A stretch of 64,000 bases of DNA from an uncultured Ignavibacteriaceae bacterium (GCA_964581995.1 CAZOQB010000008.1:77278-141277); one strand, 5' to 3'. Counted from the stretch's first letter, positions 7,905-50,709 are shown. The notes: generated by a model not told the origin, from the sequence alone. Program-made: numbers and translations.

Positions 7905-8075
7905 ACCGCGGATGACACGGATAAGACGGATCAACACAGATTCTAAAAATCCCAAATAATATCGAATACTCAAAATACAATTCTTTGGAAAAGTATACAA
8001 TGTATCTATTGATATTTTGTATTTGTTTTTTATTTGATAATTGTTGTTTGCTATTTGATATTTCATATAAAAGTT
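7905..8075. repeat. Compound low-complexity intergenic element
   Basis: CCGCGGATGACACGGATAAGACGGATCAACACAGAT (RCGGAT/ACAGAT repeats), then AAATCCCAAAT..AAATACAA mirrored by TTGTATTTG..TATTTGATA. Confidence 0.5.
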
Positions 8076-11013: not shown

Positions 11014-11210
11014 TTGTATAAAAATAAATACAGAACTTCGGCTTATGTCTATTGATGTAAACAGATATATTTTTCTTAAATGAAAGTTAATATAAATGTT
11101 GACAAAATGACTTATTTTAAGTAGATTGAAATAGTGACATTCTAAAAGATTTGAATTATTGTGGCATTTATATTGTTTTTATAATGACAGTTAAATTTAA
11201 AGGTGATAAA

Positions 11211-12197
11211 ATGAAAAACCTATTTATAGCAACCCTAACACTAATTGTGTTCACAATGTTTTTTACAGGCTGTTATACTCAATTAGGCGCTGTAAAATCC
11301 GAAAGTAGACCTATTATTGAAGAGGATTACTCATACGAACAGAGTGAAGATTATAACTACGACAGCGATACGACATATTATGATCGCAACGGTAGTACCA
11401 CTAACAATAACGATTATTTTGATGGTGGGTCTTGGTATCCTAGACACAGTTGGAGTTATTCCTACTATTACCCTTCATATTACTGGCCCTCTATTGCATT
11501 TGGTTATGTGTACAACGATCCATGGTTTTACGACCGCTACTGGTACTATGACCCTTGGATTTGCGGAACGCCATGGATTTACTACCCCGCATATTACTAT
11601 CCGTCTTTTTATTACCCGCCGTATTACACAAATTATTGGTGGGCAGATAACTACACTGTAACAAGTACAGGTACTGTTACAAAAACCAGGCGCGATTTTG
11701 GAAACTCACGCGATAATGACAAACGTGGCAATACAGCTATTGACGACCGAACAGACCGATTGCCTACCCGCAGCGGATATGACCTGCCGACGGGTGTCGG
11801 AGTTACGGGTTCTGGAGGACGCTCGGCTGCTGGAAAAACAAGTGAGGTACAAAGACCATCGCGCGGAACAAGTTCATCAAGAGAAGTTGCACCAAGAAGT
11901 TCAGATAGATCGCGTCGAAGCGATAGTCCAAGTTCTGGCTCACGCCGTGAACGTTACGAGCGAACCGATCGTGGTCAATCAACTCCGCCCCCAAGCGGAC
12001 CGTCAAGAGGTTCTGAGAGTACTCCAAGACGTGACGACGGAACTTCAACACGGACATACACACCACCGCCATCTGCTCCTGCACCATCAGCACCGGCACC
12101 GTCTTCGCCACCACCATCAAGAGGCGGTGATTCGCGCGGCGGAAGCAACGACAACAACCAAGGTTCGCGCAGCGGCAGTAACCGAGGCGGCAGATAG
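11211..12197 (+). CDS. Lipoprotein with Tyr/Trp/Pro-rich core and Arg/Gly/Ser/Pro-rich disordered tail
   Basis: Lipobox FTGC after hydrophobic leader (ATG 11211); low-complexity C-terminal half. Confidence 0.75.
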   Translation: MKNLFIATLTLIVFTMFFTGCYTQLGAVKSESRPIIEEDYSYEQSEDYNYDSDTTYYDRNGSTTNNNDYFDGGSWYPRHSWSYSYYYPSYYWPSIAFGYVYNDPWFYDRYWYYDPWICGTPWIYYPAYYYPSFYYPPYYTNYWWADNYTVTSTGTVTKTRRDFGNSRDNDKRGNTAIDDRTDRLPTRSGYDLPTGVGVTGSGGRSAAGKTSEVQRPSRGTSSSREVAPRSSDRSRRSDSPSSGSRRERYERTDRGQSTPPPSGPSRGSESTPRRDDGTSTRTYTPPPSAPAPSAPAPSSPPPSRGGDSRGGSNDNNQGSRSGSNRGGR

Positions 12198-18369: not shown

Positions 18370-19413
18370 TTGAAAATGACGGAGGAATATAGTAAATTGC
18401 TAACACACTTGAATACAAGAAGAAATGTTAAGCCCAAGAAATATAGGAAGAAAAGTTGTGTGAAAGCAACAAATTGCCTACAGAATACATCCCAATCAAC
18501 CCTCTTTGAGCAAGAGCTGATCGGAAAAATCCATCGGATAGATAAGGACTCTGAAAACGCACAACTTCATTACGAGAAAAAGAACGGAAGGCTCTATTTA
18601 GGGGATTCAATTAAATGGCTTTCAAGATTAGAACCTGAAAGCGTTGATATGATATTTGCCGATCCGCCTTACAATATAAAAAAAGCAGACTGGGATAATT
18701 TTGAAAGCCAAGAAGAATACATTAATTGGTCTTTGAGTTGGATTGAACCTGCCTCAAAAGCTCTCAAGAGAACTGGAACACTCTACATTTGCGGCTACTC
18801 AGAAATTCTTGCCGATCTCAAGCACCCATCAATGAAATATTTTAAGGGTTGTCGTTGGATTGTGTGGCACTATAAAAATAAGGCTAACATTATGGGTAAG
18901 GATTGGGGGCGTTCACACGAAAGCATCTTACATTTCCGAAAAGGGAAGGAATTTACTTTTAATCTGAACGATATTCGTGTTCCTTATGGCGGGCACACAT
19001 TAAAGTATCCATATCATCCCCAAGCTGAAACAAGTCAATATGGAAATGGTAAACAACACGTTTGGAAACCAAACCCGCAGGGAGCTAAACCAAAAGATGT
19101 ATTAGATATTCCAACGACTTGTAACGGATCAGAAGAATCCACACCACACCCGACACAAAAGCCAGAAGAACTTGTTAGAAAATTTGTTCTTGCCAGTTCA
19201 AATGAAGGCGACATTGTGTTAGACCCGTTTTCCGGTTCAGGAACGACACTGGTAGTAGCAGAACAATTAAAACGGTGCTGGTTGGGTTGTGATAATAATG
19301 TTGAATACAACGAGTGGGCAATTAAAAGATTAGAAAGTGTACCAAGAAGAACAAAAGAAGAATGGATAGAATTTGACAAAAAAACAGCGGAAAGACGGGA
19401 GTCCATCAGATGA
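18370..19413 (+). CDS. Site-specific DNA methyltransferase (N6-A/N4-C, beta class)
   Basis: DPPY motif IV early; HPTQKP and DPFSGSGTT (motif I) late. Confidence 0.92.
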   Translation: MKMTEEYSKLLTHLNTRRNVKPKKYRKKSCVKATNCLQNTSQSTLFEQELIGKIHRIDKDSENAQLHYEKKNGRLYLGDSIKWLSRLEPESVDMIFADPPYNIKKADWDNFESQEEYINWSLSWIEPASKALKRTGTLYICGYSEILADLKHPSMKYFKGCRWIVWHYKNKANIMGKDWGRSHESILHFRKGKEFTFNLNDIRVPYGGHTLKYPYHPQAETSQYGNGKQHVWKPNPQGAKPKDVLDIPTTCNGSEESTPHPTQKPEELVRKFVLASSNEGDIVLDPFSGSGTTLVVAEQLKRCWLGCDNNVEYNEWAIKRLESVPRRTKEEWIEFDKKTAERRESIR

Positions 19414-20300
19414 CCTTGAAAAAGCTATTAGCAAAAGCAACCGATAAAGAAAAGTTCAAAACAATCCAAAATTATATTGATTTTTGCTCTGAGTATTTAG
19501 AGTTCATCGAAGAGAATTTGCAGGCAGTAATAGTATCGCAAAACGAGAATCATTATAGGTTCTATCAATATAAGAAAGACGGAAATTTTAATGTTAGCAG
19601 ACCGATAAATTCTAATTTGATGTATGATGCAAAAGGATTTGAGAAAGCAAAGAAGAAGTTTAAGAGAATTCTAAAAGATACCGACACAGACACCGCAGAA
19701 CTTAGAGGCGTGCTGAACAATAGTATTTACACAATTCAACAATCAATCGGTGCAACATTGGATGCCCTCCCAGCCACACAATCGAACACTGCCAGAAAAA
19801 TTGTGGGAGATTTATTTGAAAGATTAATCAGAACAATATTAAGCGAAATAGGAATTGATTGTTCTTCTGGTGTGGTAAACATTCCAGTTATTGTAGATGG
19901 AAAAAGAGAATTTGATTTCAGCTATCAGCACGATTTAATTATCAAAAAAGGAGATGAGTTAAAAGCAATTGGTTCTGTTAAAACCTCAAGCAAGGACCGG
20001 ATTGACAAGATTTTCATAGACAAGTTTCTTTACAACAAGCTGACAGATAAAGCTACACCTCATTTTGCCATATTCTTGAACGATGTTCAGAGAAAAGATG
20101 GACGCACAAAAGGAAAGTTTGGGGTGAGTGCAACTTTTTTGCCCGGACACTTTAAGGGATACACCGTAAAACTAAATCCATTAGATGGAGTATATTATTG
20201 CGACATCAGACCAAATATGATTACAGAGGCAATTCTGAAAGATCACATCAAAACATTTGACCATCTTTTGTTTGATGATATTTGGACGATGGTGAGATAA
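19410..20300 (+). CDS. Putative type II restriction endonuclease
   Basis: ATGA overlap with the methylase; QHDLII..GSVKTSSKDR resembles a PD-(D/E)xK-fold catalytic segment. Confidence 0.6.
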   Translation: MTLKKLLAKATDKEKFKTIQNYIDFCSEYLEFIEENLQAVIVSQNENHYRFYQYKKDGNFNVSRPINSNLMYDAKGFEKAKKKFKRILKDTDTDTAELRGVLNNSIYTIQQSIGATLDALPATQSNTARKIVGDLFERLIRTILSEIGIDCSSGVVNIPVIVDGKREFDFSYQHDLIIKKGDELKAIGSVKTSSKDRIDKIFIDKFLYNKLTDKATPHFAIFLNDVQRKDGRTKGKFGVSATFLPGHFKGYTVKLNPLDGVYYCDIRPNMITEAILKDHIKTFDHLLFDDIWTMVR

Positions 20301-20320
20301 ATAAAATCGAGAATCGGGCA

Positions 20321-20458
20321 CACCAACTTTTAATAACTTGGCATTGCGCCTAGCGTTTCGTCAATCAACGCAGTATGTTTGTGAACATATAATTCTCATT
20401 CACAGTGAGCAAAAGTGTTGAGTGAGGCTTTTTAGTCATGGCATTACCAACGTTATGC
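20321..20458 (+). other. attC-like imperfect hairpin
   Basis: ..CACCAAC right after the gene stop and GTTATGC core at 20452; internal arms TCAATCAACGC/GTGTTGAGTGA and TGTGAA/TTCACA pair. Confidence 0.4.
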
Positions 20459-20470
20459 GCAGTACCGTGT

Positions 20471-20932
20471 TCATTTTCTGGTGATAAGCCAAACAAACGC
20501 TGCTGCGACGCCGAGACCTATCCATGCATTCGTTTGCCGTTGCTTCTGTGCGCTTTGAAAAATATTCTGTTGTAACCATAAATATGCTTGATCAGCATTC
20601 TGTGAAGCATCTAGGTATTTGAGATCACTTATAAATGCTGGCAATTGAAGCCCACCTTCTAACACTATTGGAAGTATTGATTTGTCCTGTCCGCAAGCAA
20701 TTCCGATTTCCTGCGTAACCCATTCGGAAGCTTTCGAATTCTTACTCCAAAGTAGGATGAATTGATCGCATGTATGAATCGCATCGAGGATTTCTTTGCT
20801 TAGCGGTGTACCTGGAGCTACTGAATACTCCGCTATGAAAATGTGAACCTCTGGACTCGAAAGGATACGCCGGACACGTTCGACGCTCGGGAAGTCATTG
20901 GTTGAGTAACTTACGAATACCTTATAAGCCAT
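20471..20932 (-). CDS. TIR domain protein with C-terminal transmembrane helix
   Basis: KVFVSYS..D, FILLWSKNSKASEWVTQEIGIA (conserved Glu), ILPIVLE; C-terminal WIGLGVAAAFVWLI. Confidence 0.88.
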   Translation of the reverse strand: MAYKVFVSYSTNDFPSVERVRRILSSPEVHIFIAEYSVAPGTPLSKEILDAIHTCDQFILLWSKNSKASEWVTQEIGIACGQDKSILPIVLEGGLQLPAFISDLKYLDASQNADQAYLWLQQNIFQSAQKQRQTNAWIGLGVAAAFVWLITRK

Positions 20933-21190
20933 TTAATAGATTCCTTTCTTGTTCTGAATCAGTTAATTTATATTTGTAATCGAAAGAACTCCTACCTCTT
21001 ACTTCCGTTAGCATAGGGAAAATTTCAAATCTCAAAACACAAATAACATCCCCATGTGTGGTTTAATATAACACACATTTTCTAAAATGGCAAAGGTTTT
21101 AATTTGCCGGTTACTTATCCAAAATAAACAACCTTCATCTGTTCATAGCTCAGGGCTTTACAAGATTTTCTATTTCTCTTTTCTTTTGCT

Positions 21191-21259
21191 ACACCCCCCT
21201 CTGTCCCCTCTCGAGATTTATCCGCCAATTTGTGTGGCGGAGGGGAAGTAAAGGGGTGT
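21191..21259. repeat. Nested GC-rich palindromic MITE-like element
   Basis: ACACCCC/GGGGTGT, CCCCT/AGGGG and TCCGCCA/TGGCGGA inverted pairs downstream of the NFACT gene. Confidence 0.6.
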
Positions 21260-39212: not shown

Positions 39213-39884
39213 TTATACCCCGCGCGTTTCAGGAGACCATATATACTTTTGTAATTGTAACTGAAATCGGACATTCAAATTATCTTCCAAAATCCAACCT
39301 GCTAAAATTTTCGGGTCAATTGCTCCATAAACCGGCGACATCAATACTATGCATTTATCCAGCAATCCAAACTCATCAATTTTTCTTTTCGTCCACTCGT
39401 AATCGGTTTTATCACCAACAACAAACTTCACCTCATCATCTTTTTTCAGATAATGAACATTCTCCCAAATATTTTTCTTTTCCATTCCGCTGCCCGGACA
39501 TTTAAAATCGACAATACGCTTTACTCTTACATCCACACTCGAGATATCAATGCTTCCACTGGTTTCAAGAAGCACTTCGTATCCTTCGTCGCATAAAATT
39601 TCCATTAAAGGATGAACATTCTCCTGTAGGAGCGGTTCCCCGCCCGTTACTTCTACTAACTTACAACCGTACGATTTTACTTTATCTATTATATCAGATA
39701 TTTTCATCTGCGTGCCTTCATTAAAAGCATAAGCAGTATCGCAATAATTACAGCGGAGATTACAATATGTCAACCGTATAAACACGCACGGTAATCCGGC
39801 ATGCGTTGACTCACCCTGTATGCTGTAAAATATCTCATTAATTGTTAGAGTATCGTTTGTGTTTTGTATAGTTTTCGCTTGCAT
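39213..39884 (-). CDS. queE: 7-carboxy-7-deazaguanine synthase
   Basis: NEIFYSIQGE, FIRLTYCNLRCNYCDT, TGGEPLLQ, QLQKYIW. Confidence 0.95.
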   Translation of the reverse strand: MQAKTIQNTNDTLTINEIFYSIQGESTHAGLPCVFIRLTYCNLRCNYCDTAYAFNEGTQMKISDIIDKVKSYGCKLVEVTGGEPLLQENVHPLMEILCDEGYEVLLETSGSIDISSVDVRVKRIVDFKCPGSGMEKKNIWENVHYLKKDDEVKFVVGDKTDYEWTKRKIDEFGLLDKCIVLMSPVYGAIDPKILAGWILEDNLNVRFQLQLQKYIWSPETRGV

Positions 39885-40028
39885 GATTCGGAAATAAATA
39901 TCAGTAGAAGTTTAACGAAAGGCAAATTGTGAGATACGGCATAGAGATAATAATTTCTATTGCTTAACAAGTATGAATTCTCTATATTATTCTATCATAA
40001 ATTATGTTAAACTTATCTTTGAAATAAA

Positions 40029-41132
40029 ATGAAAACTTACATATGGTTATTTACTTTAATTATCCTTTTACTTGGCGGCTGTTCGAAAGAGAGCACCAAC
40101 CCTATCGTTAACGACGACGGTACTCTGAATTCAAATATCCAAACGATTGATAATGTGAATGCCGCAAACGGCGATGTTTCAACCGCCATCGACGGTAATA
40201 ATAAACTTCACGTCGCTTATTTTTCGTTCAACCTCGGATTAAAATATGCAACAAACAAAACCGGCTCGTGGGTATCAACAATGATTCATCCAGAGGACAC
40301 GAGTACCACTATGTCTGTTTATAATGACATTGCAGTTGACAGCAGCGGATTTGCTCACATAGTTTATACTATCTCCGGACTGAGAGTGACTGATGAATCG
40401 GCAGTTTACTACGCCACTAACAAAACCGGCATATGGGTTAAAACCAAGATTGCTTTTGCAACAGGCTCAGATTTTAGTGGTGCCGGCTTGGCGGTTACAA
40501 GTACCGGCAATGTTCATATAGTTTATGGTGATCACACGATGAGTCTAATGTATAAACATAATCTTTCCGGGTCATGGACAAGCGCAGGAAATTTAGGCTC
40601 TTACTGGACAAGCGTTCGACCGCGGCTCGCTCTCGACGCAAGTAACAATGTTTACGTGGCATACGAACATGGTGGAGAGGGAACCTTACATCTACAAGTA
40701 ATAAACTCGGCGGGAAGCCTTGTAAGCAATTCGATACTTGATGGTGTGAGTGGATCAGGAGTGTCGGTTGGCTGGAGTCCGGATATCGCTATCAATAAAA
40801 CTAATGGCTTTGTTTTAACACCATACTGGAATTACGATAGCAAATTATTAAAAATTTATAACGGCGGAACTATAACCACGCTCGATACTTTAAACAACTG
40901 GACTGACCCAGCTATTGTAACCGATATCAGCGGAAAAGCGCATATCTGTTACACCGACTTAACTACTTATGAATTGTACTACGTGAGCAATAAAACCGGA
41001 CCATGGGTTAAGGAAATAATTACTGCATCTGTTACAGCGAGGGGTTCGGCTCTCGTCGTTGAACCGACAGGAAAATTACATTTTATATACTGTGTTAAAG
41101 GCGTTAATTCTTTGAGAGTGATTACAAAATAA
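40029..41132 (+). CDS. Lipoprotein with repeated beta-propeller-like modules
   Basis: Lipobox LGGC; repeats of IAVDSSG.AHIVY..YYATNKTG.W. Confidence 0.7.
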   Translation: MKTYIWLFTLIILLLGGCSKESTNPIVNDDGTLNSNIQTIDNVNAANGDVSTAIDGNNKLHVAYFSFNLGLKYATNKTGSWVSTMIHPEDTSTTMSVYNDIAVDSSGFAHIVYTISGLRVTDESAVYYATNKTGIWVKTKIAFATGSDFSGAGLAVTSTGNVHIVYGDHTMSLMYKHNLSGSWTSAGNLGSYWTSVRPRLALDASNNVYVAYEHGGEGTLHLQVINSAGSLVSNSILDGVSGSGVSVGWSPDIAINKTNGFVLTPYWNYDSKLLKIYNGGTITTLDTLNNWTDPAIVTDISGKAHICYTDLTTYELYYVSNKTGPWVKEIITASVTARGSALVVEPTGKLHFIYCVKGVNSLRVITK

Positions 41133-41175
41133 AATTTTTCAATCATTTTGGCATTGATTAATTTTTGTTTCTGAT

Positions 41176-41203
41176 AAAGCCAACCTTTTGAGTTGGCTTT
41201 TTT
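41176..41203 (+). terminator. Intrinsic terminator
   Basis: AAAGCCAAC..GTTGGCTTT followed by a T run. Confidence 0.8.
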
Positions 41204-41232
41204 AATGGGCTCAAATAGGTTACAAGCGAATT

Positions 41233-41403
41233 ATGTGGTATATTGAAAACAAAAGGGATAAACCAATGTTGAGTCTAAGAATGCCAAAAAAAGTTATAAA
41301 ACCAGCGGTTCAGAAAGTTAATAATTTCTGGGATAATAGAGAACAAATTGTTAATAAGGCAAGAAAAGAAAAAGAGAAGAAAGACTTACGAAAAGGTGCA
41401 TAG
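41233..41403 (+). CDS. Small hypothetical protein (56 aa, Lys-rich)
   Basis: Hand-translated ORF MWYIENKRDKPMLSLRMPKKVIKPAVQKVNNFWDNREQIVNKARKEKEKKDLRKGA, below the ORF-track cutoff. Confidence 0.4.
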   Translation: MWYIENKRDKPMLSLRMPKKVIKPAVQKVNNFWDNREQIVNKARKEKEKKDLRKGA

Positions 41404-41439
41404 AAGCTGTATTAGACAAATTCCTATGGATAAAAGATT

Positions 41440-41613
41440 ATGTCAGGATTAACTAAAAAAGAAAGAATAAAACGATCCACTTTTGATATTACAGTTTTTG
41501 AAAAAGCCTATAATATTGATTTGAAAAAGTGGTATGGTAAAGATCTGTACGGTGATAGTAAATTAAGTGCAGAGTATCTTATTGAAGTAAGCCGACTTAG
41601 AGAACAAAGATAG
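41440..41613 (+). CDS. Small hypothetical protein (57 aa)
   Basis: Hand-translated ORF MSGLTKKERIKRSTFDITVFEKAYNIDLKKWYGKDLYGDSKLSAEYLIEVSRLREQR. Confidence 0.45.
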   Translation: MSGLTKKERIKRSTFDITVFEKAYNIDLKKWYGKDLYGDSKLSAEYLIEVSRLREQR

Positions 41614-41645
41614 ATTAATATGCCATAAATTAAAACAGAAGAGAT

Positions 41646-41819
41646 ATGACAAAACAATTTGAGATGTTAAAAATTTTCCTGACCAAAGAACAAGTGGGAA
41701 AAATTATTGATGACAAATTTAGTAATGAAGAATGGGAATTATTTACAACTTATGTAAAAAACTTTAAAACAGAGAAATTAGTTTACTTGTTATATAATAA
41801 ATGGAATGAATCAGTATAG
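41646..41819 (+). CDS. Small hypothetical protein (57 aa)
   Basis: Hand-translated ORF MTKQFEMLKIFLTKEQVGKIIDDKFSNEEWELFTTYVKNFKTEKLVYLLYNKWNESV, with purine-rich GAAGAG upstream. Confidence 0.45.
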   Translation: MTKQFEMLKIFLTKEQVGKIIDDKFSNEEWELFTTYVKNFKTEKLVYLLYNKWNESV

Positions 41820-41949
41820 GTGTTATAGATCCCAACACTATGCAAAGTAAAAATATTGAATGGTAGAATATTAATTATATTGACACAAATAAATAAGAGA
41901 ATACTCTAAACCCCCAACGAATTAAATAAATTAAAACAAGAAGAAACAA

Positions 41950-41981
41950 AAAGCCCCAGTGAAAATATTTGCTGGGGCTTT
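41950..41981. terminator. Hairpin terminator, probably bidirectional
   Basis: AAAGCCCCAG..CTGGGGCTTT. Confidence 0.7.
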
Positions 41982-41997
41982 CTATTTACAAAGGGGG

Positions 41998-42026
41998 TTG
42001 ACTTTTATTGCAGAGGTTCTTACTAT
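41998..42026 (+). promoter_or_regulatory. Near-consensus sigma70 promoter
   Basis: TTGACT, 17-nt spacer, TACTAT. Confidence 0.55.
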
Positions 42027-42106
42027 CTAATTCTTTTGTTCGAACTCATCCCCTATCTGAGTTTAAACAAAAATCCGGGCTTGACCAAAAAGTAAAATTA
42101 TTCATT

Positions 42107-42228
42107 GTGAAGCTTTGTGCCTTTGGGTTTTTGTGGCAAAATAAGTGTGTCTATTAAATATAAATGAACTCATTGCCACGAAGGCGCCAAGTCACTAAGG
42201 TACGAAGAACACAGAGGCACACAAAGAC
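42107..42228. repeat. Low-complexity palindromic element (CACAAAG/CTTTGTG class)
   Basis: CTTTGTGCCTTTGGGTTTTTGTGGCAA..TTGCCACGAAGGCGCCAAGTCACTAAG..CACACAAAG. Confidence 0.6.
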
Positions 42229-42246
42229 TTTCGAGACAACGCCGGT

Positions 42247-42276
42247 GACTTTGTTCAAAACTTGTCGGGGGTTGAG
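42247..42276 (+). repeat. 30-bp direct repeat, left copy
   Basis: GACTTTGTTCAAAACTTGTCGGGGGTTGAG, identical to 48539-48568. Confidence 0.95.
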
Positions 42277-42337
42277 ACCATTTTATAGACTTTTAGCACA
42301 GCCTCCATCACTCAGCGACAAATCCCAAATTAGAAAA

Positions 42338-42637
42338 TTATATAATCAATTTATTTTTATCAATCTCTTTCATAATCCTCTCCGTCTCTGCAAGCGCGAC
42401 AATCATTTTCTGATAATGCTCGATATCGGCATTGGTAAGTGTACGACCTTTACGATCCTTTAGCCATTTCTGTGCAGGTTGGTAGCCGCCGATGTAGAAG
42501 TTCCAAGCAGTTTCTGGGACATTACCAAAGTATTGGTCTCTGTTCATAAATACTTTGTTATCTTTGTACACCAATTTCTCAACAGTGTCTGAGCCGTTTA
42601 CCGGATATGTAGTAATAAATTTATTTACTTTCGGCTC
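42338..42637 (-). pseudogene. C-terminal fragment of the single-chain R-M gene
   Basis: EPKVNKF..WNFYIGGYQPAQKWLKDR..KNKLII; about 16 differences over about 98 aa versus the end of ORF 44818-47892. Confidence 0.92.
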
Positions 42638-42671
42638 CTAACAGAGACGTTTACTAATGTATTTTTAGTTT

Positions 42672-42830
42672 CGAGTCCTTTAGGACTCGTATGTCTGTAG
42701 CACGATATCGAAAAATAATATTCCGCTCCGTAGGAGCGGTATGTCTCAATCAGTTTCAACATTCGACCCCTCTGGGGTCGGTATTGTTTTTCTATTTTCT
42801 TTCTACAAACATTCGACTTCTAACGGAGTC
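42672..42830. repeat. REP cluster (four short hairpins)
   Basis: CGAGTCCTTTAGGACTCG, CCGCTCCGTAGGAGCGG, CGACCCCTCTGGGGTCG, GACTTCTAACGGAGTC. Confidence 0.85.
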
Positions 42831-42939
42831 CATAATATCTAAAACTTATTCAAGCTATGATTCTTTATGCAAAACTGAATGCACGACAAGTGAAACTGCC
42901 GTGCTTTCCCGCTATGATCCCAGTTTACAGTTTGGACCG

Positions 42940-43707
42940 TTAATCTTTTATGAAACCAGCTTCTTTCCTGATTTGAGGAACTTGATCTTTTGCACGTATT
43001 AAATCCTCCTTAGGAAGTAAATCCCACGCTCTCTTCATAGTAGATTGATAAAACTCTTTCATAGCATTTGCTATAGTATTATGAACTCCGGGGTCATACA
43101 ATGGAATATCTTTTTGTATCCCCGAATAATAAGATTCACCTTTCACGGCAAGATCTATTTGTGGAATAGGCAAACTTTTAACTATTAATTTTTGCTTGGT
43201 AAATGTTTCTGAAATATACAGTGTTATTTTCCCGCTGAGAGTTAGAGTCCCTTCATATTCGGAAACAGTTTGTTTACCATCTGATCCCATAGGTATATAT
43301 GTCCAACCTCCTGATGTTTGGTCAATGTTTAATTTGATATCAGCAGATAAACCTAATTCACATTCGGTTTTGTCTGAATAAGTCATTAAATCATATTGTT
43401 CATAAGGACCTTTTAGAATATATCCTCGTGCCGTTAATATTTCTTCTAAATCATTTCCCATACTGGAACGAAATTGTTTAAATGGTGATTTATTTGAATA
43501 CACGAAATCTTCCGGATAAATGGGGTCGAACAAAGCAATTTTTAATCCTGCACTACCAGGCGCTGCAGAGCTTGGCGGCGAAAAATCAAAATCAGGAATT
43601 ACTATAGGTGTACGTGTTGTTATTCTCTCCTGTGTTGCACAAGCCGGAAACAATAATGCGAACACAATGAGTGTCGCTGACGAGTAAAGGTTCTTTTTCA
43701 TTTTCAT
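42940..43707 (-). CDS. Hypothetical lipoprotein
   Basis: Leader ending LFPAC; no recognised domain. Confidence 0.7.
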   Translation of the reverse strand: MKMKKNLYSSATLIVFALLFPACATQERITTRTPIVIPDFDFSPPSSAAPGSAGLKIALFDPIYPEDFVYSNKSPFKQFRSSMGNDLEEILTARGYILKGPYEQYDLMTYSDKTECELGLSADIKLNIDQTSGGWTYIPMGSDGKQTVSEYEGTLTLSGKITLYISETFTKQKLIVKSLPIPQIDLAVKGESYYSGIQKDIPLYDPGVHNTIANAMKEFYQSTMKRAWDLLPKEDLIRAKDQVPQIRKEAGFIKD

Positions 43708-43741
43708 TGTTATTAATTGTTAGTAATTATTTGTTGAATTT

Positions 43742-43763
43742 ATTATATAATCAATTTATTTTT
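43742..43763. repeat. 22-bp copy of the R-M gene stop-codon region
   Basis: ATTATATAATCAATTTATTTTT, identical to 42337-42358. Confidence 0.75.
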
Positions 43764-43774
43764 TACATATGGTC

Positions 43775-43830
43775 GTCAGCAACCGTTTGCTGACAAAAAC
43801 ATTTTACTGTCGTGAAATGGTTCACGACAG
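43775..43830. repeat. Two REP-like hairpins
   Basis: GTCAGCAACCGTTTGCTGAC and CTGTCGTGAAATGGTTCACGACAG. Confidence 0.75.
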
Positions 43831-43917
43831 CCGGGCTTTAAAATTTTTATAATGAAAAATATAAATCATTGTCGCAAAGGTATAAGTTAGCAAATCATTT
43901 TTAATGTAGTTCTTTTC

Positions 43918-44799
43918 CTACTTTTTTAACCATGAGATTATTTTTGAATTTATATCGGTTCTTACCTTTCTGAGTTCATGATCATCATTCAACATATGAA
44001 TCTCCAGATTTGCTGCTCCCTGCTTTTGCAGCGAACGATAAAGCGGAAGAATGTGGTCTTCAATTGTTACACCAGAATCGAGCCAGCCACCGAATAAAAG
44101 TATATCCTTTTTCGCAAGCTTATCTGCAAAATTTTTAAGGTTATATTCCTCTTTATGTTGTAACAACCATTCGTAAGATGCTTTCCCTCCTGGTCCACGG
44201 GATCTGGATGTATCCGACATGCACCTGTCCAGGATTCGTTCATGTAATCTCCTGAAATCAAGATCTTGTTCATACATCGTGGCCCAAACACTCAAATCTG
44301 CACCCGCAATCGAACATACTTTCCTGACAGAATTATCGTATAGGGAACCTAACAGAGCCAGTCCACCCCCATAGCTGTTGCCAATTAATGATATATTTGA
44401 TGTATCAATAGAATATTTCTTTATTGTTTGATCCAATTTTAGGAAATCAATCGCTGAATTTACATTTTTAAGTGAAGTCTCCGGTGACCAAATTCCTTTA
44501 CTTGACCATGTACCACTATAACTGAAGGTAAGGACATTAAAACCAGCTTCTGCTAGTGTATGTGCAAGTTCAAATATTAAATAATCTTTTCCGCAATAGC
44601 CATGCAGTAAAATCACTGTTGAGGAAAATTCTTTCGCCTTAGCTTTGTAGAACCAACCATGAATATTATCTCCGTAACTGTTAAAGTTAATTTCATTGGG
44701 ATTATCTGTTTCATTCTGTGCAAGTAGTAATGAAACTGGCAAAAAATAAAGAATTATTAACAGAAAAACTAGATTAGTAAAACAATTCTTTTTTTTCAT
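43918..44799 (-). CDS. Exported alpha/beta hydrolase
   Basis: Signal peptide; LLHGYCG, SYSGTWSSKG, nucleophile GNSYGG, late D and DH residues. Confidence 0.85.
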   Translation of the reverse strand: MKKKNCFTNLVFLLIILYFLPVSLLLAQNETDNPNEINFNSYGDNIHGWFYKAKAKEFSSTVILLHGYCGKDYLIFELAHTLAEAGFNVLTFSYSGTWSSKGIWSPETSLKNVNSAIDFLKLDQTIKKYSIDTSNISLIGNSYGGGLALLGSLYDNSVRKVCSIAGADLSVWATMYEQDLDFRRLHERILDRCMSDTSRSRGPGGKASYEWLLQHKEEYNLKNFADKLAKKDILLFGGWLDSGVTIEDHILPLYRSLQKQGAANLEIHMLNDDHELRKVRTDINSKIISWLKK

Positions 44800-44817
44800 T
44801 TTATTTCCCCCTTATAA

Positions 44818-47800
44818 TTAAACAATCAATTTACTTTTATCGACCTCTTTCATAATCCTCTCCGTCTCTGCAAGTGCCACAATTATTTTCTGATAATGCT
44901 CGATATCGGTGTTTGTAAGAGTTCTGCCATTGCGGTCTTTAAGCCATTTCTGTGCTGGCTGATAGCCGCCGATGTAAAAGTTCCACGCAGATTCCGGGAC
45001 TTTGCCAAAGTACTGGTCTTTGTTGATATAAACACAAGAGTCTTTGTAAATTATTTTTTCGACTGTATCTGAGCCGCTTACAGGATAGGTTGTTATAAAC
45101 TTATTTACCTTAGGTGATTCGAGGAGATGGAGTGAACGCAATTCAGCGCCAAGGGCAACAAGTTTTTTAAAACTCTTTGCATCTTTTGGATACGGCACAC
45201 GCGGGAAATCTATTTTTAAAAACTCTTTGTATTTCTCGCGATAACTCGGTGAGTGTAGAACTGCATAGATATAATCAAGAATATCTTCGGGAGTAACTTT
45301 GCCGACAATCTTTTCTATCTCTTTAACAATTTCTTTTTTGAGATTTGGAATTTTTGATCCGTCTTCGGCATATACATAGAGGGGTAATAATGATTCGCTA
45401 CCCTTGTTATCAGATCGTATGTAGCCATCTGCCATAATTTTATTGGATATGAAGAAGTATGACGTTTTATCTTCTGCCATCTGACGACGAACAACCAATC
45501 CGACATTCTCTTGTAACGAGTGCTTCATTATCTGGTATCTGGACCGCTCGATAAAATCATCGTGATAGTAAATAAATCGATTATCAAATGGGCGATAACT
45601 AATTGGTACTAAATTTTTATCATCATAATTATGTTTTAAAGCATTTATAGCTCGCCAGTTCATATTTTCTTTTAGTCCAAATTTTATCATTGCCTCTTGT
45701 GGCGTTGCACTCGAAAGAAAACCATTGATTCGTTTTTTAAGAATTTTATTATCGTAATCAATTACAAAATCGTCGCGTGAAGTTACAATACCTACACTTG
45801 AAATAGAGAATAGATCGGCAACGGAAAATCCCTTTTTATACTCACCCAAAATATTTGTATCCCGAACAACCCATTCATAATTTGGACTTGATGGAGTAAT
45901 GGATTTCCATTTTACCGAATCGATTGAATTAGTATTAAGAAACTCAAACTTTGATTGGCGAGTGCCGAAACTATCTGCAAGAAATATCCTAGTGGCTTTA
46001 TTCTTACTAGCTTTCCTTCTTATTCCCAAGAAGATCGCGACGCCCTGTTTAATATCAAAGACATTTTTATCTTCACTTCCATCTGGTGCTTTCTCTTTTT
46101 TATTGGCGTTACCGTGCAAGTCAAGCACATATATTTCATCAAATGTACTCATAAGATGATAGCGCATTCCGCGAAATGTCGGGTTGTCAATATATCCATG
46201 AGCAGTAATCATTGCTACGATACCCTCACCCGTTTTTTCAATCATGCTTTCGGCAAATCTGATAAATTTCACATAGTCGTCACTTAGCCATTTAGAATTC
46301 CGTTCCTGTAATTTTCCACCCGATGGTTCTGTTTTATAGACATCATTGCCAGTATATGAGGCATTGCTTGATTCACCAGAATACGGTGGGTTACCAATTA
46401 CTACCATAATAGGCGATTCGTTCTTTATAACCGATGCTTCTTTGGATTCATCTGCAATACTTTCAGCAAAACCAAAACCAGTAAACAGGTCTGCTTTGGT
46501 CGCACCTTCTTCGAGAGAATTTGTAAGATAAATACCAAGCCGGCGGTTAAAATATTTAAATCCCGTTTCTTTAAACGCCATACTCAACTTCAGGTGGGCT
46601 ATAGTATATGGCGCCATCATAAGCTCAAATCCGTGCAGTCGCGGCAGCAAATCGTTATGCACGTATGTGGTCCAGCGCCCCTTCTGTCCATCCTTAAGTA
46701 ACCGTTCGTAGATTATACGAATAACAGCGCTAATGAATGTGCCTGTCCCGACAGCCGGATCAAGAACCTGAACCCGGTGCAGACCGGTTGCTGTTTTTGA
46801 TGTGTCGGCTAAACCGGAAGCGAGACCAAAATCTTTTTCAAGTAAGTAATCAACAGAACGCACAATGAACCGCACCACCGGCAGAGGCGTATAAAACGCA
46901 CCCATCTTTTTCCTGAGTTCGGGATCGTATTCTTTTAAAAAGTCTTCATAAAAATGAATTACGGGGTCGGGTCCCTCTTGCGTTTTTCCCCACGAATCAT
47001 CTTTGAAATATTGCTTCATCAACTCCGGAACATCGGCATGGGAAAAAACCGAGCACAACTCATTTACAATATACTCAAGCCGTTTGTCAAAATTTGGTCC
47101 AACTATGTGGTCAAAGAAATGCCGAAGCAGAGGGTTTGATGCCGGCACGAGGTCGCGGGCTTCCTGCCGTGTAAAGTTTTCAGGCGTTGTATCGTGATAC
47201 CTTGCTACAAAAAGACCATAGACAAGAGTTTGCGCATACATATCCGCGAAAGATTCTTCTGTAAGGTCGTGCACAAGAAGTTTTTTAATCGTATCATGTA
47301 CACGTATTATCTCAGCGTTTTTTTCCGACTTATTTGAAAGAAATTGTTTGACGTTATCCCGTATCCTTTGCGCTTTACCACCCATAATTTTTGATAAGTG
47401 CTCTCCCGACCGGATCGGTTCTTTATGCGATTGCGTGAAATCAACTAATGTCTTGGCAACGTGGTCAAAATTTTCCGGTATAGCTACAATCTTTCTATGC
47501 TTAATATCATAATCCGCAATCTTGATTGGAGTTTGATAGGATAAACCGTTTCTGTAAAAACGAAATTCAACATAATCTGTCAGAACTAAATTGGCATAGC
47601 CAAAATATCTTGCCATCTGCTCGGACTTCTCCACTTTATCCAAAGACACGCCAATATCTTTCGCTTCGATATATAAAATTGGCACATCGTGGTTAAGTAC
47701 AACAAAGTCCGGCTTGTTCCCTTGCTTTGCTTTTGCATCGTGATCTATACGCCGCACATTGATTGACTCGAAAATTCCCTTTAATAAAATTTCAAAGTCG

Positions 47801-47892
47801 GTGCGGTAACCCATCTCGCTCGTTTCCTCGTGCGCGAATTTGGAGGAGATGGATTTAATATAATTTTCGAAAATATTTTGCATAGATTTCAA
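44818..47892 (-). CDS. Single-chain restriction-modification enzyme (N6 methylase, type IIG/ISP-like C-terminus)
   Basis: N-terminal KPDF..IEAK nuclease motif; GAFYTP, LDPAVGTGTF, IGNPPY; C-terminal DFPRVP..IGGYQPAQKWLKDR. Confidence 0.92.
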   Translation of the reverse strand: MKSMQNIFENYIKSISSKFAHEETSEMGYRTDFEILLKGIFESINVRRIDHDAKAKQGNKPDFVVLNHDVPILYIEAKDIGVSLDKVEKSEQMARYFGYANLVLTDYVEFRFYRNGLSYQTPIKIADYDIKHRKIVAIPENFDHVAKTLVDFTQSHKEPIRSGEHLSKIMGGKAQRIRDNVKQFLSNKSEKNAEIIRVHDTIKKLLVHDLTEESFADMYAQTLVYGLFVARYHDTTPENFTRQEARDLVPASNPLLRHFFDHIVGPNFDKRLEYIVNELCSVFSHADVPELMKQYFKDDSWGKTQEGPDPVIHFYEDFLKEYDPELRKKMGAFYTPLPVVRFIVRSVDYLLEKDFGLASGLADTSKTATGLHRVQVLDPAVGTGTFISAVIRIIYERLLKDGQKGRWTTYVHNDLLPRLHGFELMMAPYTIAHLKLSMAFKETGFKYFNRRLGIYLTNSLEEGATKADLFTGFGFAESIADESKEASVIKNESPIMVVIGNPPYSGESSNASYTGNDVYKTEPSGGKLQERNSKWLSDDYVKFIRFAESMIEKTGEGIVAMITAHGYIDNPTFRGMRYHLMSTFDEIYVLDLHGNANKKEKAPDGSEDKNVFDIKQGVAIFLGIRRKASKNKATRIFLADSFGTRQSKFEFLNTNSIDSVKWKSITPSSPNYEWVVRDTNILGEYKKGFSVADLFSISSVGIVTSRDDFVIDYDNKILKKRINGFLSSATPQEAMIKFGLKENMNWRAINALKHNYDDKNLVPISYRPFDNRFIYYHDDFIERSRYQIMKHSLQENVGLVVRRQMAEDKTSYFFISNKIMADGYIRSDNKGSESLLPLYVYAEDGSKIPNLKKEIVKEIEKIVGKVTPEDILDYIYAVLHSPSYREKYKEFLKIDFPRVPYPKDAKSFKKLVALGAELRSLHLLESPKVNKFITTYPVSGSDTVEKIIYKDSCVYINKDQYFGKVPESAWNFYIGGYQPAQKWLKDRNGRTLTNTDIEHYQKIIVALAETERIMKEVDKSKLIV

Positions 47893-47907
47893 AAAAGACG
47901 TGTTTGT

Positions 47908-48129
47908 TCAGGACTCGAATTCCTTTGTTGGCAGATGCGATTGACGCATAATGGATTTCAGAGTTCCGAATTTGATCTCTTCGTGGTTAGGAACGGGAAC
48001 AGTAATTGTTGAGGAGCCGGTTTTCTTCTGCATAATAATGTGGCTCCCACGCTGACGAACTTTCTGAAAACCGTGTTTGGAAAGGATATGACAGACCTCT
48101 TTGCCAGAGAGGATTCGCATTTTAGCCAA
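47908..48129 (-). CDS. hicA: HicA family toxin
   Basis: RQRGSHIIMQK..TVPVPNHEEIKFGTLKSIMRQ. Confidence 0.9.
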   Translation of the reverse strand: MAKMRILSGKEVCHILSKHGFQKVRQRGSHIIMQKKTGSSTITVPVPNHEEIKFGTLKSIMRQSHLPTKEFES

Positions 48130-48349
48130 CGGCTACCTCTAAGCGAGTGACAAAAACTTCGTCATGCAAGCGTTCACGAATTTCTTTACTTGAAGCCGTT
48201 TCAAAAAATAATTCGATTGCTTCTTTGAGATTCTTTCGAGCCTCTTCGACGGTTTCACCCTGACTGGCAATATCGAGTTCAGGACATAGAGCAACATACA
48301 TATTGTCCTCTCGTTCAATGACAGCTGTAAATTGATGTCTTTTCGGCAT
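48122..48349 (-). CDS. hicB: HicB family antitoxin (short form)
   Basis: YVALCPELDIASQGETVEEARKNLKEAIELF; overlaps hicA. Confidence 0.9.
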   Translation of the reverse strand: MPKRHQFTAVIEREDNMYVALCPELDIASQGETVEEARKNLKEAIELFFETASSKEIRERLHDEVFVTRLEVAVG

Positions 48350-48457
48350 TTTAAAAACCTTCTTTCTTGATTGATCTGGAATTAATGATACTATAAAGTT
48401 AATATAGCATACATTCCCTAAAATGTCAATGTGAGAGGTTTGAGGTTGGGTAGTTGC

Positions 48458-48522
48458 GGACAGACTGAAAGTCCGTCCTACCGGGTACGATTCAACCGGT
48501 ACGACATGCTTTTAGCATGTCG
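48458..48522. repeat. GTAG-type REP hairpins
   Basis: Minus strand GTAGGACGGACTTTCAGTCTGTCC; GTACGACATGCTTTTAGCATGTCG. Confidence 0.7.
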
Positions 48523-48538
48523 ATAGGCAGAGAAGGGG

Positions 48539-48568
48539 GACTTTGTTCAAAACTTGTCGGGGGTTGAG
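48539..48568 (+). repeat. 30-bp direct repeat, right copy
   Basis: Identical to 42247-42276. Confidence 0.95.
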
Positions 48569-48616
48569 TTCAAATGTTTTCGCTCAGCTTCTATCCCGTT
48601 AACCGGAAATAATAAA

Positions 48617-48706
48617 CGGGCCGAAGCTCTGTCTGCGCGCTATTTTTGGTAGGAACGCACAGACAGGCTTCATTTAAAGTATCACGGGAGGAATGATACT
48701 TACCCT
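48617..48706. repeat. 90-bp structured direct repeat, left copy
   Basis: Identical to 50392-50481; two hairpins GAAGC-TCTGTCTGCG..CGCACAGACAGGCTTC and AAGTATCA..TGATACTT. Confidence 0.97.
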
Positions 48707-48731
48707 TGAATTATTATTACATTCCAGCTTA

Positions 48732-50195
48732 TCATCTCATCAATATCATTTTCTTGGTCTCAATAAAAACTTGTTCTGAGAGAAGCGAAGGATCAACGGC
48801 AACTAATCTGTAGTAATACACACCGCTTGTTACACCTCCTGCGTTCCAGAATAAAGAGTATTCACCTTTTTCTTTCTTCTCTTGAGCGAGTGTTGCTACT
48901 TCCCTGCCCAACAGGTCATACACTTTTAGCGTAATATAACTTTCTCTTGGTACTGAGAAAGATATTTTTGTTTGTGGATTGAAGGGATTTGGATAATTCG
49001 CAGCTAATGCGAAGCTGCCAGTAACATTTGCTCGTTCGTTTACATCGGTGATAAGCATTTGCCAAGTAAGGGTATCTTTCTGGGAATTCTGCCATGCGCT
49101 GCTGTTCCATGTTTGGCATAATTCCTCTGTTATGTTTTTATTTGCATCGTAGGTGTAAGTGTATTTCAACCAATTCACCCACAAACTAGCGTTCCACGTT
49201 TGGTATAACACCTCTGTCCTGTTTTTATTTGAATCATAGGTGTGACTGGATTTAGTATCATTCACCCACGAAGTAGCGTCCCATGTTTGGTATAACCAGT
49301 CTGTCATGTTTCCATTTGCATCGTAGGTGTAAGTGTGTTTGTAAATATCCTCCCACAAACTGCCGTCCCATGTTTGGCATAACCAGTCTGTCATGTTTCC
49401 ATTTGCATCGTAGGTGTAAGTGTGTTTAGTCTCATTCACCCACGAACTTGTGTTCCATGTTTGGTATAACACCTCTGTCCTGTTTTTATTTGAATCATAG
49501 GTGTAGCTGGATTTAGTCTCATTCACCCACGAACTAGTGTTCCAGTTTTGGCATAACGCCTCTATCCTGTTTTTATTTGAATCATAGGTGTAACTGGATT
49601 TAAACTCATTCTCCCACACACTGCCGTTCCATGTTTGGCATAACATGTCTGTCGTGTTTCCATTTGCATCGTAGGTGTAACTGTATTTCACCCAATTCAC
49701 CCACAAACTGTCGTTCCATATTTGGTCTAACCAGTCTGTCATTTTTTCATTTGCATCGTAGGTGTAAGTGTGTTTAGTCTCATTCACCCACACACTGCCG
49801 TCCCATGTTTGGTATAACCAGTCTGTCATTTTTCCATTTGCATCGTAGGTGTAAGTGTGTTTAGTCTCATTCACCCACACATTTGTAAGCGTATCCCATA
49901 ACTGAAATACATCAGAAATCTGTAGATACATCGTATCTGATAGAACCTTAGTAAACTTATCTACTCTTCTATCGGCAAATTTTATATTGAAAAATAATCC
50001 CAGCTCATTCCGGAACTGTTGTTCAATGTGAATTCTAGGATGATGAGGGTATTGCGCGCGCGCGCTATCCACAATCTTTTCCTGAATGAACGTCTGGCAA
50101 TTGTATATGTTTTCCTTTTTCTGAGAGAACACCAACACTGTAAAAGAAACTGTAAGCATCACGATGGCGCTAAAAACAATCGCAAAGCTCTTCAT
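48732..50195 (-). CDS. T9SS type A sorting-domain protein with nine 29-aa repeats
   Basis: Signal peptide; repeats like ETKHTYTYDANGNMTDWLYQTWDGSVWVN; C-terminal NYPNPFNPQTKISF..LKVYDLLGREVATL. Confidence 0.9.
   Translation of the reverse strand: MKSFAIVFSAIVMLTVSFTVLVFSQKKENIYNCQTFIQEKIVDSARAQYPHHPRIHIEQQFRNELGLFFNIKFADRRVDKFTKVLSDTMYLQISDVFQLWDTLTNVWVNETKHTYTYDANGKMTDWLYQTWDGSVWVNETKHTYTYDANEKMTDWLDQIWNDSLWVNWVKYSYTYDANGNTTDMLCQTWNGSVWENEFKSSYTYDSNKNRIEALCQNWNTSSWVNETKSSYTYDSNKNRTEVLYQTWNTSSWVNETKHTYTYDANGNMTDWLCQTWDGSLWEDIYKHTYTYDANGNMTDWLYQTWDATSWVNDTKSSHTYDSNKNRTEVLYQTWNASLWVNWLKYTYTYDANKNITEELCQTWNSSAWQNSQKDTLTWQMLITDVNERANVTGSFALAANYPNPFNPQTKISFSVPRESYITLKVYDLLGREVATLAQEKKEKGEYSLFWNAGGVTSGVYYYRLVAVDPSLLSEQVFIETKKMILMR
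49085..49880. repeat. 87-bp intragenic tandem repeats
   Basis: TTAGTCTCATTCACCCAC recurs at 49774 and 49861 (period 87); about nine units. Confidence 0.9.
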
Positions 50196-50313
50196 AAGCT
50201 CACCTTATATTTTGTGTTTGAATGATGATTTGAAATAAAAAATAATGAAAATAAAACAGCTTGTCAAGAAAAAAACGAAGAAAATAGTAAATAATATTGT
50301 TTCCAGAAGAAAT

Positions 50314-50350
50314 AAAAAAGCCACAAACATGTAACAGACATTTGTGGCTT
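50314..50350 (-). terminator. Intrinsic terminator in the leader of the T9SS gene
   Basis: Minus strand AAGCCACAAA..TTTGTGGCTT followed by T run, about 120 nt upstream of the start at 50195. Confidence 0.8.
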
Positions 50351-50391
50351 GAAGCGGGAACGCTTTATAAACAAGAAACCTAAAAAATAAT

Positions 50392-50481
50392 CGGGCCGAA
50401 GCTCTGTCTGCGCGCTATTTTTGGTAGGAACGCACAGACAGGCTTCATTTAAAGTATCACGGGAGGAATGATACTTACCCT
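50392..50481. repeat. 90-bp structured direct repeat, right copy
   Basis: Identical to 48617-48706. Confidence 0.97.
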
Positions 50482-50544
50482 AATATCATTTTCATTAAAA
50501 ATATTACCGTTACCTTCATAAATCTCCTACAGTATTTCACACTC

Positions 50545-50627
50545 TGTGGACCCTGTAGGACTTGTCCCGAAGGGATTCCGTGAATAAAAGACTTTTTATG
50601 AACGGAAAACCTACGACCACACGGATT
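50545..50627 (-). pseudogene. Copy of the tRNA 3' half with a 43-nt hairpin insertion in the T-loop
   Basis: TGTGGACCCTGTAGGACTTG [TCCCGAAGGGA TTCCGT..ACGGAA] AACCTACGACC matches the tRNA sequence TGTGGGCCCTGTAGGACTTGAACCTACGACC. Confidence 0.8.
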
Positions 50628-50635
50628 GTTTTTTG

Positions 50636-50709
50636 TGGGCCCTGTAGGACTTGAACCTACGACCCGCAGATTATGAGTCTGCTGCTCTAACCAACTGAGC
50701 TAAGGGCCC
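50636..50709 (-). tRNA. tRNA with CAT anticodon, most likely tRNA-Ile2 (lysidine type)
   Basis: GGGCCCTTAGCTCAGTTGGTTAGAGCAGCAGACTCATAATCTGCGGGTCGTAGGTTCAAGTCCTACAGGGCCCA; cloverleaf intact; resembles ileX-type tRNAs; CCA not encoded. Confidence 0.92.

Follow-up and report, generated by a model that had tools for sequence, protein, structure and literature searches.

Repeats between tRNA-Ile2 and queE in an uncultured Ignavibacteriaceae bacterium probably record several unrelated insertion and recombination events

Introduction

How does a chromosomal interval beside a tRNA gene come to hold toxin–antitoxin (TA), restriction–modification (RM), and surface-protein genes set among several direct repeats (DRs), with no integrase or transposase encoded nearby? 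The question is raised by a 64,000-nucleotide (nt) stretch of DNA (GCA_964581995.1 CAZOQB010000008.1:77278-141277, hereafter the window) from an uncultured Ignavibacteriaceae bacterium, a Bacteroidota/Ignavibacteria-like host. A preliminary description, drawn from the sequence of the window, presented positions 42247-50709 as an accretion island of stacked modules at a tRNA-Ile2 gene: a modified copy of the tRNA 3′ end, a pair of 90-bp DRs around the gene for a repeat protein sorted by the type IX secretion system (T9SS), and a pair of 30-bp DRs around a hicBA TA pair, an RM gene, a hydrolase gene, a lipoprotein gene, and a 3′ fragment of the RM gene. Each repeat system was taken to delimit cargo, which suggested modular cassettes moved in trans by more than one recombination mechanism and stabilized by the TA and RM genes. 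All of these features are present at or near the places where they were put, and they exceed chance expectation.

Comparison with related loci suggests a different history. The interval 39885-50634, between tRNA-Ile2 and queE, is probably a chromosomal gene-exchange hotspot built up by several unrelated, mostly old events and not by one cassette system. The repeats in it are genuine, but they resemble scars left by known kinds of insertion and recombination, not parts of a new cassette-moving system. More than one process is evident: a scar made of half a tRNA, an indel bounded by a long repeat, an IS200/IS605 end at an RM fragment, and a swap of the RM recognition domain. The proposal that more than one mechanism operated here is borne out to that extent; of trans-acting site-specific recombinases there is no sign.

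Results

The interval between tRNA-Ile2 and queE varies piecewise among relatives

The right-hand anchor of the interval is tRNA-Ile2 (anticodon CAT; 50635-50709, minus strand), the sole tRNA gene in the window, recognized by ARAGORN and by the Rfam tRNA model (75 bits). Its assignment to Ile2 is supported because the best Escherichia coli matches of this tRNA(CAT), 84% identical over the full length, are annotated as tRNA-Ile. The left-hand anchor is queE, encoding 7-carboxy-7-deazaguanine synthase (39213-39884, minus strand). Four useful comparator loci (L040, L045, L046, and L060) were obtained by scanning metagenomes with the 3′ half of the tRNA and by looking up QueE homologues. A scan of genome contigs with the flanking methyltransferase gave a best match of 64% identity and none with the tRNA nearby; the contigs of ~90%-identical relatives (L037 and L039) end 30 nt into the tRNA; and exact look-ups of island proteins returned the same genome only. 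The tRNA is 100% identical in L046, and its 3′ half is identical in L040-L044.

In L040, whose proteins are 68-81% identical to those of the window, the order is MBL, MTase, tRNA, ~360 nt with a 58-aa open reading frame (ORF) and hairpins, queE, and queC. Because L040 lacks all of 39885-50634, the variable interval is larger than the 42247-50709 first proposed. The remaining comparators hold other gene sets, described here with the names DR109 and DR33 for the repeats first reported as 90 and 30 bp. In L046 (QueE 79% identical) the tRNA is followed by 115 nt, a single DR109 (3897-4005), ~200 nt, a 48-nt landmark (seg48), two unrelated ORFs, a promoter element, a full-length RM gene, a 124-nt RM remnant, phd/parE, and queE; the T9SS gene, hicBA, DR33, and the copy of the tRNA half are absent. 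L045 (QueE 87% identical, ~92% at the nucleotide level) begins with the C-terminus of tnpA and continues with a 119-nt hairpin block, an RM 3′ remnant (E_A) with the same breakpoint as in the window, ~130 nt of DNA not related to the window, a seg48-like remnant with a terminator, a gene of 367 codons, and queE. It has no left DR33 copy, no palindromic element, and none of the three small ORFs. The L060 contig (QueE 75% identical) starts in the hairpin block, ~670 nt from queE. The idea of a variable, accreted interval is therefore sound, as the ~360 nt of L040 and the different gene set of L046 indicate; its content changes piece by piece, and among the proposed modules only the DR109 unit is supported as one.

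The landmark seg48 lies at 41976-42023 in the window and is 94% identical to the sequence ~200 nt after DR109 in L046. Together with a terminator it is contiguous in the window (42023-41945) and split in L046 (4206-4252 and 5768-5805) by ~1.5 kb carrying ORFs of 282 and 141 aa, pointing to another insertion, within the terminator hairpin, in the L046 lineage.

The preliminary description had reported no integrase or transposase, and a Pfam search of all window ORFs of at least 110 aa, over the full 64 kb, likewise found neither. Neighbors of the interval are ordinary chromosomal genes (e.g., dnaB, ruvB, queC, and queE). The interval shows no anomaly of GC content or skew, and its base composition is like that of its flanks. 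Such loci have been documented: 27% of hotspots lack an integrase or transposase (any mobility-associated protein), only 29% have a tRNA or tmRNA gene, and their turnover is associated with homologous recombination on either side (Oliveira et al., 2017; PMC5635113). The locus studied here appears from its sequence to match this class, being a defence-rich, variable interval between conserved genes beside a tRNA; it encodes neither integrase nor transposase, and its turnover is piecewise. The comparison here covers four comparators instead of a pangenome, and of the genes compared only the RM backbone exceeds its neighbors in identity.

Since the source is a metagenome assembly, the order of features could in principle have arisen by chaining strain variants of one locus during short-read assembly. 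Breaks do occur at DR109, at the insertion sequence (IS) end block, and at a 43-nt insert near the tRNA, and two assemblies of this genome disagree by one unit in the T9SS repeat array. An artefact is nevertheless extremely improbable. The ENA k119 contig (L001 and L036) has the same order and is identical to window positions 32940-61334 outside the 87-nt T9SS array, although it represents the same genome and so is not independent. Logan contigs assembled at k=31 from two runs (L051/L052 and L034/L035), which do not depend on that assembler and overlap by 30 nt, together span 40177-48646 and include both DR33 copies. L034 and L035 each end precisely 30 nt (k-1) inside the distal DR109 copy, as expected where a real repeat exceeds k. 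L046, moreover, independently carries DR109 and RM remnants. The refutation that the preliminary description had itself named, repeats created by assembly, is thus not what these contigs reveal.

A structured repeat bounds the T9SS gene

DR109 occurs twice in the window, both times on the minus strand. The tRNA-proximal copy (50382-50490) is a Y-shaped structured element, and the distal copy (48607-48715) begins 16 nt past the stop codon of the T9SS gene. The repeat given earlier as 90 bp is in fact 109 nt long, with 94% identity between copies; 90 nt is the length of the core (48617-48706) identical in both. Shuffled sequences give an expectation of 0 chance matches for DR109 or DR33, and the 64 kb contains no further copy of either. 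DR109 is 92-94% identical between the window and L046, compared with ~75-80% nucleotide identity for neighboring genes. Its predicted fold on the tRNA strand has two hairpins enclosed by a stem of four pairs (−47 kcal/mol, z=−6.7); on the opposite strand z=−4.3, and several of the G-U pairs would be mismatched there. Pairing is preserved at all three paired positions substituted in L046 (U-A to U-G twice, U-G to C-G once), a pattern that, coming from three sequences, is suggestive only. Neither DR109 nor DR33 has a credible Rfam match at gathering or permissive thresholds. On its sequence conservation and predicted folding, then, DR109 is a conserved structured element native to the downstream region of the tRNA, and it may be an undescribed small RNA or a processing element linked to tRNA-Ile2.

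Between the two copies lies the gene for a T9SS-sorted repeat protein of 487 aa (48732-50195, minus strand), with a Por_Secre_tail domain and DUF3836/RHS-like repeats by Pfam and with tandem units of 87 nt. A promoter-like TTGACA-17-TATTTT (50239-50267, minus strand; a consensus match only) stands upstream of it, and a hairpin resembling an intrinsic terminator, with a 13-bp stem and a T run, follows the tRNA-proximal DR109 copy (50318-50350, minus strand). Because L046 has one DR109 and no T9SS gene, the gene is a discrete unit bounded by DR109, as the preliminary description had it; and since DR109 is native to the region downstream of the tRNA, the T9SS module is a genuine repeat-bounded gain or loss. 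The gene, with its own terminator and promoter, would have been gained or lost by recombination involving DR109, which was left duplicated in the window. Two histories would give this result: the gene came in and DR109 was duplicated, or L046 lost it when its two copies of the repeat recombined. Similarities in the flanks beside the DR109 copies span 8-20 nt, too short to tell Campbell-type integration from duplication at a staggered cut.

The tandem array itself comprises about ten 87-nt (29-aa) units at 48999-49907, and the ENA assembly has one unit fewer (458 compared with 487 aa). The difference could be real variation or an assembly collapse.

The DR33 pair is younger than part of the DNA it encloses

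The right DR33 copy (48536-48568) lies 38 nt beyond the distal DR109 copy, and the left copy (42244-42276) lies 59 nt after the RM remnant. The repeat first reported as 30 bp is present as 33 nt with 32/33 identical, the copies being 6292 nt apart from start to start. Gapped extension shows flanks no better than shuffled sequence, and DR33 is unstructured (z=+1.0) with no dyad. By blastn-short it is absent from L040, L045, L046, and L060, so that none of these comparators offers a single DR33. Neighboring genes have synonymous divergence (dS) of 0.20-0.42 between the window and L045. A neutral 33-nt pair as old as the split from L045 would be expected to show at least ~6.6 differences, where 1 is observed (Poisson P(≤1) ~0.01). 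The junction between E_A and the IS end, which lies between the DR33 copies, is older than the DR33 pair, because L045 and L060 share it at the same position relative to queE. The enclosed DNA is thus unlikely to have arrived as one unit no older than its repeats. We conclude from these comparisons that the DR33 pair would be a young duplication and not the boundary of a unit moved whole, contrary to the cassette drawn around it in the preliminary description. Most likely DR33 arose as a by-product, either when different versions of the interval were stacked or through a small repeat element, and is not an attachment site.

Directly beside the left copy is a loosely palindromic element made of motifs of the CACAAAG/CACGAAG type (42100-42243). 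It has a weak match between queE and queC in L046 (10873-10905).

A published pattern with which both repeats invite comparison is insertion with long target duplication, in which an insert with R and M functions, shorter than 20 kb, is flanked by a repeat longer than 30 bp that is present as a single copy in the comparator (Furuta et al., 2010, PMC2853133; citing Nobusato et al., 2000). The closest homologue of the window RM enzyme (L053) lies between perfect 57-nt repeats. DR33, whose 33 nt barely exceed the 30-bp threshold, brackets the RM segment of the window, where R and M functions occur within <20 kb and no integrase or transposase is matched, although the remnant of an IS200/IS605 end is there. 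DR109 occurs on both sides of the T9SS gene and singly in the comparator. Unlike in the published pattern, no comparator with a lone DR33 was found and part of the DNA that DR33 bounds is older than the pair, while DR109, for which there is evidence of an empty site, brackets a surface-protein gene and not an RM gene. The pattern can be accounted for by recombinase-independent routes already known, namely insertion with long target duplication (PMC2853133) and hotspots free of mobility genes that turn over by homologous recombination (PMC5635113).

Separate cassettes stabilized as first proposed, each with one of the repeat pairs (tRNA half, DR109, or DR33) as its attachment site and excised and integrated by recombinases encoded elsewhere in the genome, are by comparison quite unlikely. 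They would accommodate three different repeat pairs within 8.5 kb and the lone DR109 of L046 with no T9SS gene; conceptual removal of both modules restores the order of DR109 followed by seg48 seen in L046; and the lengths of DR33 and DR109 fall within the range of integrase attachment sites. However, no recombinase is encoded in the 64 kb. Neither DR33 nor the DR109 core matches viral contigs, DR109 has no plasmid match (blastn), and a covariance model detects no further DR109 copies over 387 kb of related loci, nor did blastn-short detect extra copies of DR33 or of full-length DR109 in the related loci searched. In L045 and L060, the E_A and IS-end part of the supposed DR33 cassette keeps its synteny with queE and is therefore older than the DR33 pair. 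The Logan contigs are unbranched at both DR33 copies, so no empty-site variant is visible in those two samples. DR33 lacks secondary structure and a dyad, and the sole copy of the tRNA half, 5 nt from the tRNA, delimits nothing. A resemblance to integron cassettes is likewise partial. Stacked repeat-bounded units in one orientation without a recombinase of their own recall integrons; in contrast to them, the locus has no IntI, no attI, and no attC-like imperfect palindromes, as DR33 is unstructured and DR109 is Y-shaped and a direct repeat. The repeats also differ from unit to unit, and the units have their own promoters and terminators.

An RM gene exchanges its recognition domain and leaves remnants

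The segment next to the right DR33 copy holds three hairpins resembling repetitive extragenic palindromic (REP) elements, followed by a near-consensus, TG-extended promoter-like TTGACA-17-TATATT (48401-48429, minus strand) for hicBA and the RM gene. The 75-aa HicB-like antitoxin (48122-48349, minus strand) has weak UPF0150/HicB_lk_antitox Pfam matches below the gathering score, and the 73-aa HicA toxin (47908-48129, minus strand) matches PF07927 (E=2e-19). With hicB upstream of hicA and an 8-nt overlap, the pair has the arrangement expected of a HicAB type II TA system. Next is a single-chain RM gene of 1021 codons (44818-47892, minus strand), whose product comprises an N-terminal PD-ExK-like region, an N6-adenine methyltransferase (N6_Mtase), Type_ISP_C, and a C-terminal recognition domain. 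It matches PDB 7lo5 (E=1e-58), and LlaGI and LlaBIII over the methylase and recognition part. Domain content and PDB matches thus point to an MmeI/DrdV-like Type IIL/IIG enzyme. In L046 the RM gene stands immediately behind the promoter element found in front of hicB in the window, where hicBA separates the two. The TA pair was inserted between promoter and RM gene, and we take hicBA and the RM gene to have a plausible defence or addiction role here.

Together with a neighboring GC-rich palindrome, the element that carries this promoter (ATTGACATTTTAGGGAATGT.TGCTATATTAA) occurs at 48399-48430, again at 21059-21093 and 21190-21216, and upstream of the RM gene in L046 (5833-5895). The combination looks like a portable promoter or REP module.

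Aligned with its L046 counterpart, the RM protein is ~93% identical over residues 1-496, 18-62% over 497-842, and ~90% over 843-1021, compared with 79% for QueE. The RM backbone is thus more similar than QueE, which implies exchange between lineages. Replacement of the central-distal region between a conserved nuclease-methyltransferase N-terminal part and a conserved C-terminus is like the recognition-domain swapping of Type IIG/IIL enzymes (PMC2853133; MmeI/DrdV-type, PDB 7lo5), and differs from it in that 3′ remnants of earlier alleles are kept downstream in the window, L045, and L046. The family is large, with more than 7700 homologues at E<1e-100, and its members occur as solitary genes among unrelated housekeeping genes and also on plasmids. 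For retained 3′ remnants alongside such a swap, we know of no earlier description. The RM homologue in L053 (81% amino acid identity) is a solitary gene adjoining an ABC-transporter operon on an unrelated metagenome contig, with its 57-nt repeats at 7860-7916 and 11180-11236 and unrelated flanks. An inverted copy of the last 15 nt of that repeat precedes the second repeat.

The Type IIL RM gene, with its promoter, is a long-term but restless occupant of the interval, its recognition domain having been swapped and its older 3′ ends having been left behind as remnants. The main remnant in the window, E_A (42336-42634, minus strand), has 299 nt that are 84% identical to 44816-45114 and 99 open codons with Type_ISP_C. 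The preliminary description does not mention 43742-43763 (minus strand), where 22 nt exactly repeat the final codons and stop of the RM remnant. E_A abuts a hairpin block (42636-42754, minus strand) that corresponds to the right end of an IS200/IS605-family element. The block is 119/119 identical in L045 (103-221), where it follows the tnpA C-terminus (tblastn E=5e-5), and 97.5% identical in L060 (1-100), where it includes the first 19 nt of E_A, among genomes that are 8-25% diverged; three assemblies break in or beside it. Hairpin richness, near-invariance, and assembly breaks are like IS200/IS605 ends or REP-like elements, and the block is probably a multi-copy IS end or REP-type element. 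Unlike a complete element, the window has no TnpA and retains the hairpin block only. The abutment of remnant and IS200/IS605-type end formed before the split from L045 and L060.

A split copy of the tRNA 3′ half adjoins the tRNA

The modified copy of the tRNA 3′ end noted earlier is confirmed as a split pseudo-copy at 50545-50627 (minus strand; gapped alignment and blastn-short). The 39-nt 3′ half, from anticodon loop to 3′ end, recurs 5 nt downstream of the tRNA, after five A's, as two collinear pieces at 50608-50627 (17/19 plus one indel) and 50545-50564 (19/20). A 43-nt hairpin insert (50565-50607) splits the copy at the T-loop position. Logan contigs L002 and L038 stop 30 nt into this insert, so its sequence recurs elsewhere in the samples. 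A motif related to the hairpin follows DR109 in L046 (4001-4040). The half-copy resembles the sites of tRNA-targeting islands and prophages in that the 3′ half is duplicated downstream of an intact tRNA beside a block absent at the tRNA in L040; it differs from them in the lack of an integrase, in the 43-nt T-loop insert, and in its position, from which it bounds no cargo. On its sequence and position, it is best read as the putative scar of a past integrase-type event at the tRNA that would have left a degenerate copy of the 3′ half.

Could such an event have delivered the whole block? A tyrosine integrase might have brought it in, integrase and distal site being lost later and DR109 and DR33 being incidental internal duplications. 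The extent of the half-copy, anticodon loop to 3′ end, is the usual one for tRNA attachment sites (PMC2853133), L040 lacks the interval, and defence genes are typical island cargo. This history is unlikely all the same. The half-copy adjoins the tRNA and not the distal border, where no tRNA-half repeat was found, and blastn-short detects no second copy in the window. L046, which has no half-copy, carries DR109 and the RM gene together with its promoter as well, the base composition of the block is that of its flanks, and the relatives differ from one another piecewise rather than by one block.

Several observations weigh against a hotspot of mostly old events

Four points complicate the reading of the interval as a gene-exchange hotspot assembled by unrelated, mostly old events. 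First, relative to L046 the window has extra DNA between DR109 and seg48, and the two DR33 copies mark its edges exactly, which is how a target duplication would look. Second, only four comparators are informative, they are 8-25% diverged, and the contigs of two of the four end at the island edge; the order of events is for this reason an inferred one. Third, the right-hand 57-nt repeat of L053 is 5 nt from the end of its contig. Finally, E_A differs by 17% between the window and L045, with dS 0.90 and nonsynonymous divergence (dN) 0.08 (dN/dS 0.09), where dS of the neighbors is 0.2-0.4. Simple vertical decay does not explain this divergence, which falls mostly at synonymous sites, unlike that of a decaying pseudogene. 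Each E_A copy is at least as far from the other as it is from intact alleles, yet their junction with the invariant IS end is common to both. The remnants of the window (42338-42634), L045 (223-564), and L046 (9031-9155) are all open reading frames, that of L045 having an in-frame 48-nt insert. RM remnants of this kind are either overwritten repeatedly from functional alleles, for which they act as homology anchors, or under selection.

Other features of the window

Downstream of the RM gene are an alpha/beta-hydrolase gene whose product has a signal peptide (43918-44799, minus strand), a terminator-like hairpin (43806-43831), and a lipoprotein-like ORF of 255 aa (42940-43707, minus strand). 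The left part of the interval (40029-41819, plus strand) holds a 367-aa lipoprotein gene, present in L045 and absent from L040 and L046, and three ORFs of 56-57 aa. No Pfam family was found for the 255-aa lipoprotein-like protein, the 367-aa protein, or the three small ORFs. The latter are consecutive on the plus strand (41233-41819), and their absence from L045 marks a further ~800-nt indel in the interval.

A second defence-like patch lies at 18370-20932. It consists of an N6_N4 DNA methylase gene (18370-19413), an adjacent 296-aa ORF without a family that is possibly a restriction partner, and a gene for a TIR/ThsB-like protein (20471-20932). Homologues of the methylase and of the 296-aa ORF are found elsewhere in L046.

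Discussion

Potentially new parts at this locus are limited to the behavior of the RM remnants and the DR109 element. A bolder hypothesis, which we consider very unlikely, is that the interval is a recombinase-independent site of gene capture, in which conserved anchors supply the homology by which defence and surface genes land and are captured one after another. In that scenario the structured DR109 of ~100 nt, which might be a new small RNA transcribed together with tRNA-Ile2, would serve as one anchor, and the open C-terminal remnants of the RM gene, which differ mainly at synonymous sites, as the others. If separate cassettes with their own attachment sites were true, the locus would represent a new kind of modular mobility; the evidence presented here does not favor them.

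For the RM family, the window and L046 alleles form a natural pair with swapped recognition domains that is usable for specificity mapping, and the published long target duplication pattern of RM genes is extended to the widespread MmeI/DrdV-like family. For the organism, the probable history outlined above makes this locus a case of the recombinase-less assembly of a defence islet adjacent to a tRNA in an uncultured Bacteroidota/Ignavibacteria-like lineage.

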